From Bacillota bacterium (GTDB lineage: Bacteria; Bacillota; JAAYKD01): 64,000 nt of DNA. Made by a program: the position numbers and the translations under genes. Each line of letters starts with the position of its first letter. Positions within the stretch are counted from its first letter, which is position 1. Under the pieces are notes generated by a model, which had not been told where the DNA came from, made no database searches, and was given only the letters and a program-made list of their open reading frames with translations. Location: contig OY762825.2 of NCBI GenBank assembly GCA_963666425.2, forward strand, positions 2,304,001 through 2,368,000, written 5' to 3'. Below, piece after piece: positions 1-9,643 of the stretch.

Positions 1-2
1 AG

Positions 3-1292
3 GCGCTCGATGAAGCCAAACGCTGCCTGAACTGCAAAAACAAACCTTGCGTCAATGGCTGCCCGGTCAGCATCAATATTCCCGCTTTCATCAAAGAAGT
101 GGAAGCAGGTCATTTTGCAGCTGCCTACGATGTGATCAATCAAGCCAGTTCCTTGCCGGCGGTTTGCGGCCGGGTCTGTCCGCAGGAAAGTCAATGCGAA
201 AAATATTGCGTCAGAGGGATCAAAGGCGAACCGGTAGGGATCGGCCGTCTGGAGCGCTTTGTCGCCGACTGCTATCAGGCCGAAGCCAGTGGAAAAATTG
301 AAAAGCCAGTGGCCAACGGGCACAAAGTTGCTGTGATCGGTTCCGGACCTTCCGGTCTTACCTGCGCCGGTGACTTGGCTAAAATCGGCTATGCTGTCAC
401 CATCTTTGAAGCGCTGCATGTGGCCGGAGGTGTGCTGGTTTACGGAATTCCGGAATTCCGTCTGCCCAAGGCGATTGTGCAAAAGGAAATTGATGGCTTG
501 AAAGCATTGGGTGTAAAAGTCGAGACAAACGTGGTGATTGGCAAAACCATAACGGTTGACGAATTGCTGGATGCCTATGGCTTTGAAGCCGTCTTTATCG
601 GATCCGGTGCCGGTTTACCGAATTTCATGAATATTCCGGGTGAGAACCTCAAAGGAGTCTATTCTGCCAATGAATTTCTGACTCGCATCAACCTGATGAA
701 GGCTTATCAGCCCAACAGCAGCACCCCGATCCAAAAAGGCAAAAACGTCATCGTGGTCGGCGGCGGTAATGTTGCCATGGATTCTGCCCGCTGCGCCAAA
801 CGGCTGGGTGCCAATGTCACCATTGTTTATCGCAGAACAGAAAATGAATTGCCGGCCCGGCGTGAGGAAGTGGAACACGCCATCGAGGAAGGAATCCAAT
901 TTAAATTTCTGCATAGCCCGCTGGAGATTTACAGCGATGAAAACGGCTTTGTCAATGGCGCTCTTTGCCAGGAGATGGTGCTGAGTGAACCGGATGCCTC
1001 CGGCCGAGCGAGACCGATTCCGCTGCAGGGCAGTGAATTTAGAATGGACTGCGATACCGTGATCATGGCCATTGGCACCTCTCCCAATCCATTGATTAAG
1101 TCCACTACGGAAGGTTTGCAGACCAATAAATACGGCTGCATTGTGGCCGACCAAAGCGGATTAACCTCTCGACCGGGTGTTTTTGCCGGCGGGGATGCGG
1201 TGACCGGCGCAGCGACGGTCATCTTAGCGATGGGTGCCGGCAAAATTGCGGCAGAAGCGATGCATCAATTTATCCAAGGTAAAAATCAGTAA
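3..1292 (+). CDS. NADPH-dependent glutamate synthase small-subunit family / NfnB-SudA-like oxidoreductase (5' end outside window)
   Basis: CLNCKNKPC..CP Fe-S motif, CGRVCPQE, GSGPSG and GGGNVAMD dinucleotide motifs, GVFAGGD; frame open to the window edge. Confidence 0.9.
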   Translation, partial: ALDEAKRCLNCKNKPCVNGCPVSINIPAFIKEVEAGHFAAAYDVINQASSLPAVCGRVCPQESQCEKYCVRGIKGEPVGIGRLERFVADCYQAEASGKIEKPVANGHKVAVIGSGPSGLTCAGDLAKIGYAVTIFEALHVAGGVLVYGIPEFRLPKAIVQKEIDGLKALGVKVETNVVIGKTITVDELLDAYGFEAVFIGSGAGLPNFMNIPGENLKGVYSANEFLTRINLMKAYQPNSSTPIQKGKNVIVVGGGNVAMDSARCAKRLGANVTIVYRRTENELPARREEVEHAIEEGIQFKFLHSPLEIYSDENGFVNGALCQEMVLSEPDASGRARPIPLQGSEFRMDCDTVIMAIGTSPNPLIKSTTEGLQTNKYGCIVADQSGLTSRPGVFAGGDAVTGAATVILAMGAGKIAAEAMHQFIQGKNQ

Positions 1293-1410
1293 CCGATATC
1301 ATTGCAAAACGCAGCCGAGCCTTTGTTTAATAAGCACGGAACTGTCTCGTTCGGGAGTCAGGGCCGTGCTTTTCCGCAGAAAAAATCGAAAAGCGGCGTA
1401 CTGTGATTTT

Positions 1411-1440
1411 ATTGACAGGCAGAACAGTCAATGATACTAT
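1411..1440 (+). promoter_or_regulatory. Sigma-A-like promoter with overlapping inverted repeat
   Basis: TTGACA (1412-1417), 17 bp, TACTAT (1435-1440) with upstream TG; ATTGAC-N10-GTCAAT palindrome overlaps it. Confidence 0.55.
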
Positions 1441-1574
1441 AGTAAGAATAAGAAACGTGTGTCAAATGAAGGTCAACACTCGAAAAAAGTGATGACTGCA
1501 TGAGATTTACGGTGAATTTCTAAGCAATAAAGCCAAACGAATCAGCACTGCATCCAAGCAGTGGGGAGACAACA

Positions 1575-3089
1575 ATGACAAAGAGTGTTCTGGAGTATTT
1601 AGAGCGTTCGGCAGCACGGTTTCCGGATAAAACGGCATTTGAAGATGAAACATCTTCTTGCACCTACGGGGAACTATGGCAGCGTGCGCAAAGAATCGGC
1701 AGCGTTTTGGCGAATAAAATTCCTGCCGGCTCTCCGATTCCTGTTTTCATGGAAAAAAGCGTGACAGCGGTAACCCTGTTCATGGGTATTCTGTCAGCCG
1801 GTTGTTTTTATGTCATGTTGGATGTGAAACAGCCGGTCACCCGCTTGAATCAGATTGTCAAAACGCTGGAAGCGTCTGTCATCATTACTGACCGGACCAA
1901 TCAAAACGCCTTGGCCTGTTTGGATTTTACGGGAGAAATCCTTGCTTTCGAAGATCTGATGCCGGAGCAGCCGGATGAAATGCTCTTGGCGGCGCGAAGA
2001 GAACAGGCACTGGACATCGATCCGCTCTACGGCATTTTTACTTCCGGATCCACCGGTGTGCCCAAGTGTGTGGTGATCAGCCATCGTTCCGTCATCGATT
2101 TTATGGATTATTTTCCCGATCTGTTTCAGATCTCAGAGCAAGATGTCATTGGCAATCAAGCGCCGTTTGATTTTGATGTGTCGGTCAAGGATATTTACAC
2201 CACGCTCAAAACCGGAGCCACTATGGTGATCATTCCGCGCCGCATGTTTTCCATGCCGATGCAGCTGCTCGATTACCTGGCGGACAGAAAAGTGACGACG
2301 CTGATTTGGGCTGTGTCTGCTTTGTGTATCCTGACCACCCTGAATGCCTTTGAGTATAAGATTCCTCGTGATATCAAGAAAATTTTGTTCAGCGGCGAGG
2401 TGATGCCGATCAAGCATCTGAATAAATGGCGAGTGGTCTACCCCAAAGCACTGTTTGTCAATCTCTATGGTCCCACCGAGATCACCTGCAACTGCACCTA
2501 TTACATCGTCGACCGAGAATTTCAGCCGGGGGAAGTTCTGCCCATGGGCAAAGCGTTTCCCAATGAAAAGGTCATGCTTTTGGACGAAAACAACCGCCTG
2601 ATCACAGCGCCAAAACAAGAGGGTGAGCTCTGCGTTTCCGGAACCGCTCTGGCTTTGGGTTATTACAACAATCGGGAGCAAACCGAAAATGCTTTTGTGC
2701 AAAATCCGTTGAATCCACATTTTCTGGAACTGATTTACCGCACGGGCGATCTGGCTTATTATAATGAGCGCGGTGAATTCTGTTTTGCTTCAAGAAAGGA
2801 TTTTCAGATCAAACACATGGGGCAGCGGATTGAGTTGGGTGAAATCGAGACTTGTCTGGATCGAATCCCGGAAATCAAACGAGCCTGCTGCATCTTTGAC
2901 GCAGAGACAAATAAGATTGTCGCTTTCTATGAAGGCGATATTACCAAAGGTTTGATCATTCGGCAGCTGAAAATTGATTTACCCGTTTATATGCTGCCCA
3001 ATACCCTTCTGCGCGTGGAAGCCATGCCAATCAGTAAGAACGGAAAAATCGACCGGGTGGCTTTGAAAAATCTTCTGAAAAGGAGCTAA
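1575..3089 (+). CDS. Stand-alone amino acid adenylation enzyme (DltA-like carrier protein ligase)
   Basis: FTSGSTGVPK, FDFDVS, NLYGPTE, YRTGDL and NGKIDR adenylation motifs. Confidence 0.9.
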   Translation: MTKSVLEYLERSAARFPDKTAFEDETSSCTYGELWQRAQRIGSVLANKIPAGSPIPVFMEKSVTAVTLFMGILSAGCFYVMLDVKQPVTRLNQIVKTLEASVIITDRTNQNALACLDFTGEILAFEDLMPEQPDEMLLAARREQALDIDPLYGIFTSGSTGVPKCVVISHRSVIDFMDYFPDLFQISEQDVIGNQAPFDFDVSVKDIYTTLKTGATMVIIPRRMFSMPMQLLDYLADRKVTTLIWAVSALCILTTLNAFEYKIPRDIKKILFSGEVMPIKHLNKWRVVYPKALFVNLYGPTEITCNCTYYIVDREFQPGEVLPMGKAFPNEKVMLLDENNRLITAPKQEGELCVSGTALALGYYNNREQTENAFVQNPLNPHFLELIYRTGDLAYYNERGEFCFASRKDFQIKHMGQRIELGEIETCLDRIPEIKRACCIFDAETNKIVAFYEGDITKGLIIRQLKIDLPVYMLPNTLLRVEAMPISKNGKIDRVALKNLLKRS

Positions 3090-3091
3090 AA

Positions 3092-4267
3092 ATGGAACGC
3101 AGCGTGTTAGCGCGGATTGCGCAGGAATTTCCGACACCGGCTTATGTTTTTGAATTGGATGAATTAACGGCAAGACTGACCATGATCCGTGAACAATTAG
3201 GCGATGCGGCCGGGCTTTGCTTTGCAATGAAAGCCAATCCTTTTTTAGTCGATCATCTGAACGGCTTAGTGGACCGCTTTGAAGTTTGTTCTCCGGGTGA
3301 ATTTGCCATCTGCGAGCGAAACCAGATCCCGGCGGCGCGGATCGTCTTATCCGGTGTGAATAAAGAGCGGACGGAAATGGAACGCGTACTTCGCTGTTAT
3401 GACACAGCGGTGACTTTCACGGCCGAATCAGAGCAACAGCTGCAAATGTTGGCCAGCTGTGCCGAGGAACAGCAGAAAACAATCAAAATCATCCTGCGTT
3501 TGACCAGCGGCAATCAATTCGGGATGGATGAGGCAACCATCTGCCGGATTTTATCCCGCTGGCAGGAGTATCCCAACCTGCAGCTGATGGGTTTGCAGTA
3601 TTATTCCGGTACGCAGAAAAAAAAGATCTCGCTGATCGCCAAAGAACTGCACTATTTGGATGAATTTTGTATCCAACTGCAGAATTCATACCAAATTACC
3701 TTTCCGAACCTGGAATACGGCCCAGGTCTTTATACCCCTTATTTTGCCCAGGATGAAGCCGTGGATGACAGTGAGCTGCTGGCGGCTCTCGGCGATTTAC
3801 TGCGCAACATGCGTTTTGGCGGCAAGATCATGCTGGAGATGGGACGTTACCTGACGGCGCTCTGTGGTTACTATCTCACGTCCGTCGTTGATTGTAAGCG
3901 GAATCAGGATCAGAATTATTGCATCATCGATGGCGGCATCAATCACATTAATTATTATGGGCAAACAATGGCCATGAAAATGCCGCCGATCCTGCATCTG
4001 GCACAGCAGGACCGCGGACAGATAGAGAACTGGCATGTCTGCGGTTCCTTATGCACTGCCGGCGATGTCATTGTCAAGCAACTCCCCTTACGGCAGCTCA
4101 TGGTGGGGGATGTCTTGGTTTTTGGCAAATTAGGCGCATATTCGATCACGGAAGGCATCTACCTTTTCTTGAGCAGAGATCTTCCCGGCGTTTTGTTTTA
4201 TAATCAGGCCGAGGGGATTCGGCTGGTTCGCTCGAGTCTTGCTACTCACCCATTCAATTCGATTTAA
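3092..4267 (+). CDS. PLP-dependent group IV (diaminopimelate decarboxylase-fold) decarboxylase
   Basis: FAMKAN PLP lysine, EMGRYL, GSLCTAGD, GAYS motifs. Confidence 0.85.
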   Translation: MERSVLARIAQEFPTPAYVFELDELTARLTMIREQLGDAAGLCFAMKANPFLVDHLNGLVDRFEVCSPGEFAICERNQIPAARIVLSGVNKERTEMERVLRCYDTAVTFTAESEQQLQMLASCAEEQQKTIKIILRLTSGNQFGMDEATICRILSRWQEYPNLQLMGLQYYSGTQKKKISLIAKELHYLDEFCIQLQNSYQITFPNLEYGPGLYTPYFAQDEAVDDSELLAALGDLLRNMRFGGKIMLEMGRYLTALCGYYLTSVVDCKRNQDQNYCIIDGGINHINYYGQTMAMKMPPILHLAQQDRGQIENWHVCGSLCTAGDVIVKQLPLRQLMVGDVLVFGKLGAYSITEGIYLFLSRDLPGVLFYNQAEGIRLVRSSLATHPFNSI

Positions 4268-4282
4268 GAGAGGAGAACCAAT

Positions 4283-4525
4283 ATGGAAAACTCAGAAGGA
4301 ATTAAAAAGATCATTGCGATTCTGGAGGACATCAATCCGGATGTGGATTATACAACTTGTACTAAGCTAATTGACAGTCAGATTCTCGATTCTTTCGCTA
4401 TTCTTTCGATTGTCGCCGAACTGCAGGAAGAATTTGATGTCTATGTGACGCCGATGGATATAAAACCGGCGAATTTCAACTCAGCCCAAGCTCTATGGGC
4501 TATGGTAGAGCGTCTGAGGGCGTAG
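4283..4525 (+). CDS. Acyl/aminoacyl carrier protein (DltC-like)
   Basis: 80 aa acidic protein with LDSF phosphopantetheine serine motif; GAGGAG RBS. Confidence 0.85.
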   Translation: MENSEGIKKIIAILEDINPDVDYTTCTKLIDSQILDSFAILSIVAELQEEFDVYVTPMDIKPANFNSAQALWAMVERLRA

Positions 4526-4558
4526 TGTCTTGAGTAACGCTTCTAGATCTGGAGGCAA

Positions 4559-6103
4559 ATGATGTCGTTAGTTTCTTTGAAATTTGCACTCTTTCTGTTG
4601 GTTGCGGTCATTGGTTATTACCGTATACCAAAAAAATGGCAATGGATATGGCTGTTGGCCTTCAGTTACGTTTATTATGCGTCTGCCGGTCTGAAGATCG
4701 TACCTTTTTTGCTTTTTTCTACCGGCGTATCCTATCTGGCAGGCCGAATGCTGGACCAAATCAAAAACAGCCAAACCGAAAAAACTCTGAAACAGAAAAG
4801 GAAACGCTTTGTCTTATTGCTGACGCTGCTCCTGGATTTCGGCATGCTTGTGGTCATTAAATATACGAATTTCGCTTTAATCAACATGAATCGTCTGCTG
4901 GATCTGCACCTTTCCCTGCAGACTTTTCTGTTGCCGCTGGGTATCTCGTTTTATACCTTCCAATCGGCAGGTTATATCATCGATGTCTATTGGGAGAAAT
5001 ACGAAGCCGAAAGGAATCCCTTTCGGTTTGCTTTGTTTGTTTCCTTTTTCCCGCAGATTCTGCAGGGCCCCATCGGCCGTTTCGACCGGCTGGCGCGTCA
5101 GCTCTATGAAGAGCATGAGTTTAATTGGCCGCGCATGGAACGCTCCCTGCAGTTGATTCTCTGGGGATTCTTTAAAAAAATGGTGATCGCCGATAATGCA
5201 GCCCGCGTGGTTGGTGAGGTTTTCTGGGGCAACAATTATCAAAAATATACCGGCACCACGATTTTGGTGGCAGTCTTGGGCTATTCCATTCAGCTCTACG
5301 GAGATTTTTCGGGCGGTATGGATGTCGTCAAAGGGGCTGCCAATCTGTTTGGCATTGAGTTGGACGAGAATTTTAAACGGCCTTTTTTTGCAGTTTCCAT
5401 TGCGGATTTTTGGCATCGCTGGCATATTACGCTGGGCACCTGGATGAAGGATTATGTCTTTTATCCCTTATCGCTATCCAAAACGATGAATCGCTTTGGC
5501 AAATCTGCCCGAAAACTTCTGGGCAAAAACATGGGGCGCGCTTTGCCGATTTGCGTGGTGAATATCATTGTATTTTTCATCGTTGGTGCTTGGCACGGCG
5601 CGAATTGGAAATATATCGCTTATGGTTTGTATAACGGACTGATCATCGGCTTCAGCGGCTTGATGATGCCGACCGCCAGGAAATGGAAAATCGCTTGTCA
5701 TATCAATGATAAATCAACAGCCTGGCGCATCTTTCAGATTTTCCGAACTTTTATCCTAGTCAATATCAGCTGGTATTTTGACCGGGCCGATAATCTGACG
5801 CATGCCTTCGCGCTGATGCAGAAAACGGTGACCGATTTTCACTTTTCTGATTTCTTGGACGGCACGCTGATGTTGAAAGGGGTAAGCCAGATAGGGCTGC
5901 ACCTTTACAACATCGTCTTGCTTGGTTGTGTCGTGCTATTTATTGTCAGTTATTATCAGGAAAAAGGTGTTCGGATCGGCGAAGTGCTGCGCGCCAAACC
6001 GGTTGCTTTGCGCTTTGTCGTCTATCTGCTGCTTCTTTATGCTTTGCCGGCATTCGGAACACTGTCGTCATCCGGAGGAGGCTTTATCTATGCGCAATTC
6101 TAA
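4559..6103 (+). CDS. MBOAT family acyltransferase (AlgI/DltB-like)
   Basis: PLGISFYTFQ, GPI, FWHRWHITL, catalytic WHG, C-terminal FIYAQF motif. Confidence 0.92.
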   Translation: MMSLVSLKFALFLLVAVIGYYRIPKKWQWIWLLAFSYVYYASAGLKIVPFLLFSTGVSYLAGRMLDQIKNSQTEKTLKQKRKRFVLLLTLLLDFGMLVVIKYTNFALINMNRLLDLHLSLQTFLLPLGISFYTFQSAGYIIDVYWEKYEAERNPFRFALFVSFFPQILQGPIGRFDRLARQLYEEHEFNWPRMERSLQLILWGFFKKMVIADNAARVVGEVFWGNNYQKYTGTTILVAVLGYSIQLYGDFSGGMDVVKGAANLFGIELDENFKRPFFAVSIADFWHRWHITLGTWMKDYVFYPLSLSKTMNRFGKSARKLLGKNMGRALPICVVNIIVFFIVGAWHGANWKYIAYGLYNGLIIGFSGLMMPTARKWKIACHINDKSTAWRIFQIFRTFILVNISWYFDRADNLTHAFALMQKTVTDFHFSDFLDGTLMLKGVSQIGLHLYNIVLLGCVVLFIVSYYQEKGVRIGEVLRAKPVALRFVVYLLLLYALPAFGTLSSSGGGFIYAQF

Positions 6104-7052
6104 AAGGGTCATCCTCTTTGCGGCATTTTTCACGGTCTGTCTGCTGCTTAACGTCATTTTGAATTATATTTTGATTCCGAATAATATCATGAGAATCAAG
6201 CTGCATAACCTGGAAACAACGACCTATGATGACTTATTCCTTGGTACGTCGCATGGCTTTTCGGCTGTGGATCCTCTGGTTGTAGACAGCATTACAGGGC
6301 GGAAAAGTACCAATCTCTGTATCTGGGGAGAGTATCCCAGAGATTCTTATTACCTTCTGAAAGAGGCATGCAGAGAGCACAAACCGGAACGCGTAGTTTA
6401 TGAGCTGGATCCCACTTATTGGATCAATAAGGATATTGATACCTATTATTATACGCAATTGTTTAATTATATGCCTTGGTCTCAGGTCAAGGCAGAGTAC
6501 TTCTTGGCGAAAATTACCTCGGCGGATTTTAGAGCTGTTTTATTCCCCTGGTTTAATTATCAATTGCAGTGGCAGCCGAATCTGGCCAATCTGGAATTAA
6601 AACAAACGGACAATTATAAAAACTACGGCCTTGATACATTTGATCTTTCCTATCAAACTTTGAAAGAAGAAGGATTCTTATTTTTCAAAGATACCAAGCG
6701 GACAAAGTCTCAATATGTCTCTCTTTGGGATGAAAAGAAAATGCTGGTGAATTCGTATCGGTATTTTGATAAAATGGTGACCTTCTGCCGGGAAAACGAC
6801 ATTGAACTGGTGGTTTTTACCACGCCCGTGCCACAGGAGACATTGGAGCTTTATCCGGAAAACTACCAAAAAGCATTCCAGTATTTTTCGAAAATGCTGC
6901 AAGGCTACGGTCTTACCTATTATAATTTCAATTACATCCAATTGGATGGTTTTGATAAGAGTCTTGTCGGTTATTCCGATTATGATGGACACATGTATGG
7001 TGATACTGCCGGTTCCTTCAGCAAATCCCTGGGAGACTATCTGAAAAAATAA
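6090..7052 (+). CDS. Membrane-anchored SGNH-type transferase (DltD/AlgJ/PatB-like)
   Basis: ATG at 6090 with GGAGGAGG RBS overlapping the MBOAT end; N-terminal TM helix, GTSHG serine motif, C-terminal DYDGH (DxxH). Confidence 0.7.
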   Translation: MRNSKRVILFAAFFTVCLLLNVILNYILIPNNIMRIKLHNLETTTYDDLFLGTSHGFSAVDPLVVDSITGRKSTNLCIWGEYPRDSYYLLKEACREHKPERVVYELDPTYWINKDIDTYYYTQLFNYMPWSQVKAEYFLAKITSADFRAVLFPWFNYQLQWQPNLANLELKQTDNYKNYGLDTFDLSYQTLKEEGFLFFKDTKRTKSQYVSLWDEKKMLVNSYRYFDKMVTFCRENDIELVVFTTPVPQETLELYPENYQKAFQYFSKMLQGYGLTYYNFNYIQLDGFDKSLVGYSDYDGHMYGDTAGSFSKSLGDYLKK

Positions 7053-7080
7053 AGTCGGGCGAATCAATAAAAAGGTATAA

Positions 7081-7117
7081 AAAAAAGCAGGCACTGTCAG
7101 GTGCCTGTTTTTTTTTA
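7081..7117. terminator. Bidirectional intrinsic terminator
   Basis: A-tract, GCAGGCAC/GTGCCTGT stem, T-tract, between convergent genes. Confidence 0.75.
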
Positions 7118-7183
7118 TCGGAACTGTTTGCCTGCTTTCAGCCTTGTTTGGCTGCAAAATCCATTTGAGGCGGCAAGGAATCA

Positions 7184-7330
7184 TTAAATGACTCTTTTGC
7201 CCTGCACTAAACGGATGATCACCAAAACCACGGCGATGACTAAGAGAATGTGCAAAAGGCCTCCGCCCGTAGTAGTAACCAATCCAAGTAACCATAAAAC
7301 AATCAGGACGACTGCAATCGTGTATAACAT
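7184..7330 (-). CDS. Small membrane protein, lmo0937-like family (48 aa, below the ORF-track cut-off)
   Basis: Manual translation MLYTIAVVLIVLWLLGLVTTTGGGLLHILLVIAVVLVIIRLVQGKRVI; GAAGGAG RBS. Confidence 0.8.
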   Translation of the reverse strand: MLYTIAVVLIVLWLLGLVTTTGGGLLHILLVIAVVLVIIRLVQGKRVI

Positions 7331-7384
7331 AATGCACTCCTTCTTCTTATGAGAATCATTTCTTTGCTTTTTCGATTCGATTTA

Positions 7385-7801
7385 CTAATCGGATAAGGTC
7401 TTCTTGACAGGGTAATCGACTGATTGATCCGCAGGATCAATCGGCGTGTATTCGACCCATTCCGGACGGACCCTTCTGGGCCTAACCAGTCCCAGGAGAA
7501 TCAGGCCAATGACACCGGTAACCAGCATCGCGATGAGGGTAGCGGGTTCCAAAAGCGGCAAGGCATCGATGGTGGTCAGGCTTACCGGAAAGATCCCATC
7601 AAAGATACCAACAATGTATTGCGTGACAGTGTAAATTCCTTTGACAAAAACATTGGTCGGATCCGCTCCCAGTAATTTGAAAAACAAGCGAAACGCCAGG
7701 GTGCATTCGAGCAAAGCTGTTAAGGCTCCGAACAGACGATATAAGAAAACATTTCCATCCACCGTTGTTTGCAGATCAGTTGAGTTAGTCTTTCTTTCCA
7801 T
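7385..7801 (-). CDS. YggT-like membrane protein
   Basis: Hydrophobic helices, LLGADPTNVFV..IY..T...V..F.GIFP pattern; ATG at 7801 with GGAAGG RBS. Confidence 0.6.
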   Translation of the reverse strand: MERKTNSTDLQTTVDGNVFLYRLFGALTALLECTLAFRLFFKLLGADPTNVFVKGIYTVTQYIVGIFDGIFPVSLTTIDALPLLEPATLIAMLVTGVIGLILLGLVRPRRVRPEWVEYTPIDPADQSVDYPVKKTLSD

Positions 7802-8109
7802 TTTTAATTCCTTCCTTTTTTTTAACACTTGTTATTACAATTCCGCAGAAGACGGACCGTTTTTGGCGATTTTCCAACAATAACAGGTAGAAGAGGAAGT
7901 GACATGTCTTTTCCATATCCGTATCATAACATAGTTATGATTAAATGTCAACATAATATAATAATTATTATTAATATAATAATACGAATTATCGGATGAA
8001 TAAAATAGCGCCTAATTTTACGTCTGTTCCGCATGACTTTTTAGCGGCAATTTAGGCGGGGAAATTTCCAGAGCAAGAAGAAAACATCAAAAAAAAAATC
8101 AGTAAATAG

Positions 8110-8162
8110 ATTGACAAAGTTCAATATGATGGTTATACTCAATATATAGATAAAGTTCAATA
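8110..8162 (+). promoter_or_regulatory. Promoter of the ars operon with two candidate ArsR operator boxes
   Basis: TTGACA (8111-8116), 17 bp, TATACT (8134-8139); ATTGA-CAAAGT-TCAAT over the -35 and ATAGA-TAAAGT-TCAAT downstream. Confidence 0.7.
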
Positions 8163-8186
8163 AGTATAGATCGGGGGACTGTTAAG

Positions 8187-8513
8187 ATGAAATATTCCTA
8201 TGCAGAATTTGTGCCGGTGTTTAAGGCACTGGCTGACGAAACCAGGTTGAAAATATTGGAAATGCTGTCGTGCGGAGAAATGTGCGCCTGTGCAATTTTG
8301 GAGAGCTTTCGCATCAGCCAGCCAACGCTTTCTTATCATATGAAAATATTGATGGAGTGCGGTTTGGTGGATGGCCAGAAGGACGGCATTTGGATGCGCT
8401 ATACCTTAAATCAAACGCGTTTTCAGGAATTGCGGGAATTCTGTCATTTATTCTGTGGGGATCATGAGGACTGTATTTGTCATCACCCCAAGGCAGACGA
8501 GTGCTGCAAATAA
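8187..8513 (+). CDS. arsR: ArsR/SmtB family metalloregulator
   Basis: FKALADETRL, CGEMCAC metal site, SQPTLSYHM HTH, Cys-rich C-terminal tail. Confidence 0.9.
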   Translation: MKYSYAEFVPVFKALADETRLKILEMLSCGEMCACAILESFRISQPTLSYHMKILMECGLVDGQKDGIWMRYTLNQTRFQELREFCHLFCGDHEDCICHHPKADECCK

Positions 8514-8530
8514 CAAGGGAGGAGATTGGA

Positions 8531-9319
8531 ATGAAAGACAAAGAAGTAGTGCGGGAATCAATCAGAAAAAGATACGGCAGCATTGCGAAGAATAAACCTG
8601 CGGCTGGCTGCTGCAGCAGCGGCTGCGACTGCAATGGTGCCCCGATGGGTAGGACAGAGGCGTCCTTGCGCTTAGGTTATTCCGAAGAAGATTTGAAGAG
8701 TGTGCCGCTGGATGCCAATCTCGGGCTGGGCTGCGGCAATCCGCTGGCCATCGCCGCATTGAAATCAGGCGAAACGGTGCTCGACTTAGGCAGCGGCGGC
8801 GGTTTCGATTGCTTTTTAGCACGCCGACGGGTTGGCGAGCAAGGTTTCGTCATCGGCGTCGATATGACGCCTGCGATGATCAAACTGGCGCGCAAGAATC
8901 TGCAAAAGAGCGGGTATACCAATGTTGAATTTCGCTTAGGGGAAATTGAGCATTTGCCGGTGGCTGACGCGACGGTCGATCTGATTATTTCCAATTGTGT
9001 GATCAATTTATCCGTAGAAAAAGAACAAGTGTTCAAAGAAGCCTATCGGGTCTTAAAAAAAGGCGGCAGATTATCCATTTCCGATTCGGTTGCTACGGCA
9101 GAATTACCGCAAGAAGCGAAACAGAGTTTAGCCAAAATTATTGGCTGCATTGCCGGTGCTGAGTATATTGAAACCTTGAAAAGCATGATGCAAAGGGCGG
9201 GCTTTACAGACCTGGTATTCACGCCAAGAGACAACAGCAAAGAAATCATCGCTACTTGGATCCCGGGCAGCAAAATCGAAGATTATGTTGCTTCCTATCT
9301 GATTGAAGCAGTCAAATAG
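8531..9319 (+). CDS. arsM: Arsenite S-adenosylmethionine methyltransferase
   Basis: N-terminal CCxxxCxC, GLGCGNP, LDLGSGGGFD, ISNCVINL, GCIAGA; follows arsR. Confidence 0.93.
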   Translation: MKDKEVVRESIRKRYGSIAKNKPAAGCCSSGCDCNGAPMGRTEASLRLGYSEEDLKSVPLDANLGLGCGNPLAIAALKSGETVLDLGSGGGFDCFLARRRVGEQGFVIGVDMTPAMIKLARKNLQKSGYTNVEFRLGEIEHLPVADATVDLIISNCVINLSVEKEQVFKEAYRVLKKGGRLSISDSVATAELPQEAKQSLAKIIGCIAGAEYIETLKSMMQRAGFTDLVFTPRDNSKEIIATWIPGSKIEDYVASYLIEAVK

Positions 9320-9355
9320 GATTTTCGGCGAAATATCGACAGAGGGAGAAAGGGG

Positions 9356-9643
9356 ATGCAAGCGATGGAAAAAGAATATGCCTTGCTGTTTAAAGCGTTG
9401 GCTGATCAAACCAGACTAGAGATTGTTGACCTGATTTCCTGTGGCGAGTTATGTGCCTGTGAAATTCTGAAGTCGTTTTCCTTCAGCCAATCCACCCTAT
9501 CCTACCATATGAAGCTTTTGACAGACAGTGGTTTGGTCAACGTGCGGCGCGACGGCAAAAAGATGATGTATTGCATCGACCCGGAAAAAGCGCTTGTTCT
9601 GATCGATTTTTGGGAAAATTTTGAAATTAAAGCAGAAAATTAG
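9356..9643 (+). CDS. arsR: Second ArsR/SmtB family regulator
   Basis: FKALADQTRL, CGELCAC, SQSTLSYHM. Confidence 0.88.
   Translation: MQAMEKEYALLFKALADQTRLEIVDLISCGELCACEILKSFSFSQSTLSYHMKLLTDSGLVNVRRDGKKMMYCIDPEKALVLIDFWENFEIKAEN

Follow-up and report, generated by a model that had tools for sequence, protein, structure and literature searches.

A stretch of 64,000 nucleotides from a Bacillota bacterium (GTDB lineage Bacteria; Bacillota; JAAYKD01; assembly GCA_963666425.2, contig OY762825.2, forward-strand positions 2,304,001 to 2,368,000), referred to here as the window, carries at positions 1575-7052 (+) a single operon of five genes. These encode an adenylation enzyme, a group IV pyridoxal phosphate (PLP) decarboxylase, a carrier protein, an MBOAT, and a protein of SGNH fold. 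The operon probably encodes an envelope acylation pathway that resembles Dlt in being carrier-fed and in ending with an MBOAT/SGNH pair, and to which a decarboxylation on the carrier has been added. Dlt D-alanylation is a principal means by which Gram-positive bacteria adjust the charge of their surface, withstand cationic peptides and influence the response of the host. The likeness to it covers a stand-alone ligase with a small carrier, an MBOAT, the FXYXXF tyrosine shuttle, an anchored SGNH-fold transferase and a similar gene order, whereas the decarboxylase lying between ligase and carrier in the window has no place in Dlt. A sequence-only reading of the window had proposed that the locus delivers a decarboxylated aminoacyl unit to the cell surface. 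This proposal is now supported computationally by the likeness of the decarboxylase to BtrK, a ligase pocket that is not that of DltA, the shuttle tyrosine, the co-occurrence of the genes, and natural gene fusions; what is said here of substrate, acceptor and the timing of decarboxylation on the carrier is inferred.

Layout of the operon

The first gene (1575-3089, +) encodes the adenylation enzyme, a stand-alone carrier-protein ligase of 504 amino acids with AMP-binding and TIGR01733 matches. It is followed by the decarboxylase (3092-4267, +), a 391-residue group IV (fold type III) PLP enzyme of a BtrK-like subfamily with both Pfam decarboxylase domains, and by the 80-residue carrier protein (4283-4525, +), whose phosphopantetheine serine S37 lies in an LDS motif. 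The MBOAT acyltransferase (4559-6103, +) has 514 residues and ends in GGGFIYAQF, a putative acyl-shuttle tail fused to the enzyme. The last gene (6090-7052, +) encodes the SGNH-fold protein in the DltD position, which carries an N-terminal membrane anchor and the residues S54, D297 and H301. Its likely start is ATG 6090, with GGAGGAGG upstream, and the resulting 320-residue protein replaces a 376-residue frame from TTG 5922. The genes are separated by 2, 15 and 33 nt, with a 14-nt overlap between the MBOAT and the fifth gene, and a GGAG-type ribosome-binding site precedes each of the five starts. The sequence-only reading had described a tightly coupled set of five genes, and all five open reading frames (ORFs) are indeed present on the plus strand with short gaps or overlap. 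Family matches and motifs bear out its adenylation enzyme, group IV PLP decarboxylase, carrier, and MBOAT ending in FIYAQF.

The decarboxylase

The decarboxylase exceeds the Pfam cut-offs for both Orn_Arg_deC_N (60.9 bits) and Orn_DAP_Arg_deC (53.2 bits), and its top NCBIfam match, TIGR03099 (173.7 bits), is below cut-off. Its key residues are K47 (AMKAN), E249 and R252 (EMGR), and C321-T322 (LCT). The PLP lysine K47, the catalytic cysteine C321 and the adjacent T322 are each kept in at least 97% of 80 decarboxylase sequences. The best solved relative is BtrK (2j66, 7ru7), with an E-value of 6e-34 and a score of 120.7 bits; the top-scoring diaminopimelate (DAP) decarboxylase reaches 88 bits. 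The title of PDB entry 7ru7 calls BtrK an “L-glutamyl-[BtrI acyl-carrier protein] decarboxylase.” Four motifs (QFGMDE, Y[ST]GTQ, DGGxxH and LCT) are common to the window enzyme and BtrK, and the LysA of the same genome differs at each of them. With BtrK as its top solved relative, the enzyme would be expected to decarboxylate only a carrier-tethered substrate. The sequence-only reading had noted a likeness to on-carrier decarboxylases, and natural gene fusions also speak for that reading: in one locus (L044) decarboxylase and carrier form a single ORF of 466 amino acids, in which PP-binding is recognized over its cut-off (23.4 bits), and two database proteins of 943 and 906 amino acids join ligase to decarboxylase with the same pocket motifs. 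A complex prediction for the decarboxylase dimer with PLP and carrier scored 0.18 against a mark of 0.32, and counts neither way.

An enzyme that could stand in for the housekeeping lysA would have told against the same reading, but this one is distinct: on the lysA model TIGR01048 (cut-off 297.9) it reaches 171.8 bits, and a true lysA (475 bits) lies elsewhere in the genome. That LysA has C-E where the window enzyme has Cys321-Thr322. In the Thermotoga DAP decarboxylase, as an excerpt of PMC8277567 describes it, the glutamate that follows the catalytic cysteine (Glu315) binds the distal amine of DAP, and ornithine decarboxylases have an aspartate there; the E315T variant is left with little DAP activity and favors a substrate that lacks this amine. 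The threonine in place of this glutamate therefore argues against DAP, ornithine or lysine as the substrate, and fits a substrate with a neutral thioester at its far end. A lysA paralogue was rejected on the sub-cut-off TIGR01048 score, the true lysA elsewhere, and Thr322 instead of Glu.

The ligase pocket and the carrier

The ligase reaches 223 bits on Pfam AMP-binding and passes TIGR01733 (339 bits, cut-off 317). On the DltA models it scores 283-295 bits, far under their cut-offs; its 283.4 bits on the DltA equivalog TIGR01734 (cut-off 559.85) still make it the best DltA-like match of the genome. The ten Stachelhaus positions were mapped by motif in GrsA numbering, and the result is consistent with the DltA residues quoted in PMC11253843. 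The pocket consists of D201, V202, K205, I244, L271, S273, L297, C305, N306 and K491, giving the code DVKILSLCNK. A true DltA (565 bits, over cut-off), found in another genome of the same phylum (G014), has DLLVLCTVAK. The D-Ala pocket residues L198 and C269 of DltA, in B. cereus numbering (excerpt of PMC11253843), correspond to Val202 and Ser273 in the window ligase and are Leu and Cys in the G014 DltA.

The pattern D-V-K-x-x-S-x-C-N-K is kept in 71 of 73 ligase homologues, and position 239 is Lys in 71 and Arg in the other two. This conserved basic residue suggests that the substrate carries a carboxylate when it is loaded; if the substrate is still anionic at that point, decarboxylation would come after loading. 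Lys239 is the anchor of the gamma-carboxylate in Glu-activating domains, and Asp-activating domains use Lys278. These codes lean toward Glu, the lactamization of unprotected gamma-aminobutyrate (GABA) thioesters leans toward Asp, and the substrate is best given as Asp or Glu. The sequence-only reading had named DltA and VinN among the pockets for comparison. The window pocket does differ from that of DltA and has a conserved basic residue, but the hallmarks of VinN are absent. A divergent sub-type with the order ligase-carrier-decarboxylase occurs in two loci (L070:5239-8134, L082:148-3074); its pocket is IARGCSQASK, without Asp235 and with Arg at 239.

The carrier matches PP-binding (17.1 bits) and the DltC model NF003464 (33.6 bits, cut-off 68), both below threshold. 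Its LDS serine S37 and the NFNSA motif are invariant in 30 of 30 aligned homologues.

Order and nature of the PLP reaction

The same pathway and product could also be reached if the decarboxylase acted on a free amino acid, converting Asp to beta-alanine or Glu to GABA before loading. Group IV decarboxylases normally do use free amino acids, and gene order does not fix reaction order. We nevertheless regard this route as unlikely: a basic residue at pocket position 239, present in 73 of 73 homologues, would be superfluous for beta-alanine or GABA, BtrK, which tops the solved relatives, depends on a carrier, and a natural fusion of decarboxylase and carrier exists.

Lysylation is a more distant prospect. 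Here the carrier would receive meso-DAP, whose decarboxylation in the bound state would leave lysyl-S-carrier, or Lys would first be made from free DAP and then loaded. The score on the lysA model is about equal to that on any other model, and the Asp235 of the ligase, together with a loop of alpha-type length, would suit an alpha-amino acid. The proposal has to contend with the replacement of the distal-amine glutamate by Thr322, given that E315T abolishes the DAP preference of the Thermotoga enzyme (excerpt of PMC8277567), and with the true lysA elsewhere in the genome. The pocket also offers Lys at 239 and a bulky Ile/Leu/Leu, where acidic residues would be expected for the amine of Lys or DAP.

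The same loop length and Asp235 would accommodate a different PLP chemistry on an alpha-linked thioester, either beta-decarboxylation of aspartyl- to alanyl-S-carrier or epimerization of an aspartyl or glutamyl group. Fold type III includes racemases, the enzyme also matches Ala_racemase_N in Pfam (42.9 bits), and the public annotation names it “alanine racemase” (alanine racemase family / decarboxylase). Such chemistry is very improbable, since the enzyme retains a complete decarboxylase architecture, with its C-terminal sheet domain and the cysteine of the decarboxylase motif, and since the nearest solved relative removes the alpha-carboxyl of a residue tethered by its side chain. We also know of no fold type III enzyme that performs beta-decarboxylation.

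An MBOAT with its own shuttle motif

The MBOAT is recognized by Pfam over cut-off (53.9 bits). Its sole NCBIfam match is the DltB model TIGR04091, on which it scores 163 bits against a cut-off of 375, and over 251 residues it is 29% identical to a true DltB. Its structural model has a predicted local distance difference test (pLDDT) score of 86.6, and the best solved match is DltB (E 1.5e-11). H289, the catalytic-type H346 (WHG) and Y511 are kept in at least 97% of 72 MBOAT sequences. All 72 end in a hexapeptide x-[IVLMQ]-Y-x-x-[FY] with the tyrosine in register, which in the window reads F509-I-Y511-A-Q-F514. In the model, two extra C-terminal helices (444-468 and 482-499) lie ahead of this tail. 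An FXYXXF tail is the demonstrated acyl-Tyr shuttle of DltX and PatA (excerpt of PMC12148441). The sequence-only reading had singled out the FIYAQF tyrosine as such a motif; its strict register agrees with this, and the shuttle role itself would follow by analogy. Within window positions 1-9000, no separate DltX-like ORF ending in FXYXXF was found, the MBOAT itself being the sole ORF with such an end.

The genome encodes two further MBOATs (L003, G000 C1:1942183-1944876, -; L005, C1:2172897-2175438, +), with tails FIYFRF and FLYFRF and DltB-model scores of 172 and 156 bits. Each stands beside a downstream protein of about 395 amino acids, without ligase or carrier, and by sequence they look like acyl-CoA-fed MBOAT pairs.

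The fifth protein

Neither Pfam nor NCBIfam recognizes the fifth protein, and a protein atlas adds no informative name. Those of its 97 homologues that are named are called hypothetical, and a few carry DUF1574 or PF27429. In an AlphaFold2 model built from a 27-row alignment (pLDDT 93.5), a helix at the N-terminus leads into an alpha/beta domain. Foldseek places DltD structures first (6pfx, 3bma, 7dxm, 6o93; best E 5.5e-6, TM 0.43-0.51), followed by SGNH hydrolases. With VIA-align, DltD gives the longest alignment (238-240 residues, Z 13.2-13.4); TesA-type hydrolases equal its score, with Z about 13, on a shorter stretch of about 165 residues, and PatB reaches Z 12.2. S54 (GTSHG) is present in 24 of 27 aligned members, the three most distant having Cys instead, whereas D297 and H301 do not vary. 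On these models the protein is DltD-like in fold as well as in position, but we do not count it in the DltD sequence family. The sequence-only reading had assigned it to the SGNH type with a serine and a DxxH motif. The SGNH assignment stands by fold and the serine is S54, but the motif has to be corrected to D297-x-x-x-H301 (SDYDGH). Elsewhere the gene occurs in tandem double copies (L032:8864-10994, L043:10192-12287) or in an enlarged form of about 640 amino acids (L018:3479-5404, with a weak ILEI-domain match; L022, judged by size from a 642-residue ORF).

Conservation of the cassette

A decarboxylase profile search of a one-genome-per-species collection gave at least 456 relatives among 589 pattern matches. 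Counts were made on the best 80 loci by decarboxylase profile, with partners scored on the same strand within 8 kb. The ligase is present in 74 of the 80, the carrier in 72, the MBOAT in 74 and the fifth-gene family in 70, and all five genes occur together in 62. Among the 18 incomplete loci, at least six end at a contig edge beside the missing part. The commonest order (35 loci) is ligase-decarboxylase-carrier-MBOAT-fifth gene, and variants have the MBOAT and fifth gene upstream; members of the fifth-gene family lie directly 3' of the MBOAT in 69 of 73 cases. The loci come mostly from Lachnospiraceae, Oscillospiraceae/Ruminococcaceae and Erysipelotrichales, largely of gut and rumen, and a few are labeled as Actinomycetes, Atopobiaceae or Desulfovibrio metagenome-assembled genomes (MAGs). 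Carriers of the cassette that can be cultured include Anaerobium acetethylicum, a Lacrimispora species and [Clostridium] fimetarium. The five genes are thus conserved as a unit in many gut and environmental Firmicutes, in an arrangement beyond chance, and the synteny on which the sequence-only reading had staked its case is found.

Within the class of the window genome the decarboxylase is present in 3 of 10 species genomes, and within a phylum sample in 4 of 401 genomes at E <= 1e-60. Among the matches listed, the closest named homologues beyond a few near-identical relatives are from Lachnospiraceae, at about 57% identity. This suggests that the window genome may have acquired it horizontally.

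An OmpR-type response regulator and a HAMP/HisKA kinase lie directly 5' of the cassette in 25-26 of the 80 loci, and none is present at the window. In one locus (L013:3450-5490, +), the regulator has 237 amino acids and the kinase 446, both on the same strand and directly 5' of the ligase. An adjacent two-component system fits a function controlled by envelope stress.

The decarboxylase family also has other partners. About 20 protein clusters (P0221-P0239, P0241), of 940-1110 amino acids, combine an N-terminal decarboxylase of the same family with an unassigned stretch of about 350 amino acids, Rib/Ig-like domains and a C-terminal transglutaminase-like core; they may represent another output module for the decarboxylated amine.

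That the operon is an ordinary D-alanylation (Dlt) operon, with the decarboxylase as an unrelated passenger or a second lysA, is the least credible explanation and was rejected: Dlt models are among the best NCBIfam matches (the sole one for the MBOAT, the top one for the carrier, the second and third for the ligase) and DltB and DltD are the best structural matches, but all Dlt models score far below their cut-offs, DltA residues L198 and C269 are replaced in the ligase, and in 74 of 80 loci the decarboxylase accompanies the ligase, with two proteins in which both are joined.

Proposed pathway

The cycle would begin with the ligase adenylating Asp or Glu, probably through the side-chain carboxyl, and forming a thioester on Ser37 of the holo-carrier; ligase and carrier are assigned to this step because of their family matches and motifs. 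The BtrK-like PLP enzyme would then strip the free alpha-carboxyl of the tethered residue, yielding beta-alanyl- or gamma-aminobutyryl-S-carrier. By analogy with DltB/DltX and PatA, the MBOAT would pass the acyl group across the membrane, using His346, to its own Tyr511. Finally, the anchored SGNH-fold protein would take the group on Ser54 and esterify an extracytoplasmic acceptor. These last two steps are modeled on the demonstrated chemistry of DltB/DltX/DltD and PatA/PatB (excerpt of PMC12148441). A wall glycopolymer or a glycolipid would be the likeliest acceptor, and the surface would gain a positively charged omega-aminoacyl decoration, chemically distinct from D-alanylation.

Several observations weigh against this pathway. 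At its first step, the beta13-beta14 loop of the ligase (TEITCNCTYY) is as long as in alpha-amino-acid adenylation domains, with no gap relative to LgrA or DltA, and C305 and N306 sit where VinN, compared by its published residues, has K330 and R331. With no shortened loop and no K330/R331, the VinN route of side-chain Asp activation is not reproduced, and a VinN-type beta-amino-acid ligase was rejected on these two features. An unprotected gamma-aminobutyryl thioester or ester tends to lactamize, which makes the GABA version less comfortable. At the second step there is the public “alanine racemase” label. At the membrane, the last 10 residues of the MBOAT model are of low confidence, and hhalign of the fifth protein against real DltD gives a probability of 5%, that is, no sequence relation. 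In three loci (L058:2438-5539, L074:5208-8158, L083:5466-8158), carrier, ligase and decarboxylase occur without MBOAT or fifth gene, so the trio is not tied to the MBOAT export route; these trios, from two Hungatella MAGs and one Clostridiales MAG, are embedded in long same-strand operons resembling glycan biosynthesis. Lastly, no LtaS-type sulfatase domain (PF00884) was found in the genome, whose completeness is 98.5%, and a classical lipoteichoic acid acceptor is therefore doubtful.

Genomic surroundings

No DltA or DltB over the NCBIfam cut-offs is found in the genome of the window, which has one TagF-type glycerophosphotransferase. About 135 nt 5' of the first gene lies a sigma-70-like promoter candidate (1412-1440, +; TTGACA-17-TACTAT with TG). 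It is a consensus match only, one of 16 such sites seen in the region against 10.8 expected. The operon is closed by a GC-rich hairpin between an A run and a T run (7088-7107), likely a two-way intrinsic terminator, which the program lists on the minus strand. An Rfam scan of window positions 1-9000 at gathering thresholds gave no riboswitch and no leader RNA. Convergent with the operon, and sharing this likely two-way terminator, is a gene for a 147-residue membrane protein without family match (7385-7828, -). Just 3' of the operon, at 8187-9643, two ArsR-type small regulators flank a 280-residue ORF that resembles S-adenosylmethionine-dependent methyltransferases and has a Cys-rich N-terminus; judged from the translations alone, the set resembles an arsenite-methyltransferase set.

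Comparison with known systems

Besides its decarboxylase, the operon departs from Dlt in lacking a separate DltX gene: a 514-residue MBOAT with two extra helices itself carries the shuttle motif, whereas DltB has about 390-420 residues and no tail. The canonical dlt operon of genome G014, from the same phylum, illustrates the difference, with a 387-residue DltB lacking a tail and a small ORF ending in FAYAEF. In that operon this ORF (L091:6198-6410, +), the sole one with an FxYxxF end, overlaps and follows dltD, and is not 5' of dltA.

The upstream half of the operon recalls BtrI/BtrJ/BtrK and VinN/VinL/VinO, in which ligase, stand-alone carrier and group IV PLP decarboxylase are likewise encoded together. 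The BtrJ ligase is of the ATP-grasp type. VinO requires the thioester before it decarboxylates (excerpt of PMC11284099). Those systems belong to antibiotic pathways and feed a polyketide synthase or an aminoglycoside, while the output of the window operon is an MBOAT/SGNH export pair, and the operon has no protecting second ligase. The “btrK” of a Clostridium cellulovorans paper was discarded as an unrelated transporter-cluster gene.

The downstream half recalls PatA/PatB, where the hexapeptide is also fused on extra helices of the MBOAT (FIYANF in NgPatA, FIYAQF in the window) and the SGNH partner is next door. In the excerpt of PMC12148441, other MBOAT/SGNH pathways, such as PatA/PatB and the O-acetylation of peptidoglycan or alginate, have no carrier protein and use acetyl-CoA; the window operon, in contrast, has a dedicated ligase, carrier and decarboxylase. 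With a fused tail as in PatA and a small carrier as in Dlt, the cassette is a hybrid of two known designs.

A ligase is also paired with a group IV decarboxylase in TIGR03098/TIGR03099 (exosortase A-associated acyl-CoA ligase and PLP decarboxylase), a pair that to our knowledge is uncharacterized. Both window enzymes score far below those cut-offs (478 and 592), the ligase scores higher on DltA models, and no exosortase context was seen around the window cassette or the related loci examined.

The literature searched holds no description of such a surface decoration, although a survey of MBOAT neighborhoods (Schultz et al., 2023) could already mention the cassette. Nothing in it joins an MBOAT, a carrier protein and a PLP-dependent decarboxylase, or DltX, an MBOAT and a decarboxylase. 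Among the matches listed, nothing relevant was found on beta-alanyl teichoic acid with an MBOAT, nor on dlt-like Lachnospiraceae sets with decarboxylase and carrier.

Implications

A wider picture can be put forward tentatively. Many Clostridia and Erysipelotrichales, and some Actinomycetota, may carry beta-alanyl or gamma-aminobutyryl esters on an envelope polymer or lipid, made by on-carrier decarboxylation of an acidic amino acid and exported by what would be the first known carrier-fed MBOAT with its own shuttle tyrosine. The ligase-decarboxylase-carrier trio might then be portable and supply other surface-glycan routes as a module, with the two-component system found in a third of the loci controlling a charge-modifying defense. 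The cassette contradicts the generalization, as worded in the excerpt of PMC12148441, that an MBOAT with a fused shuttle is fed by acyl-CoA and has no carrier protein. It also lets on-carrier decarboxylation be tested cleanly in a setting other than antibiotic biosynthesis. If the proposed pathway is true, the cassette, with its at least 456 relatives and a home in a genome without canonical dlt genes, would be a second and chemically different form of surface aminoacylation.

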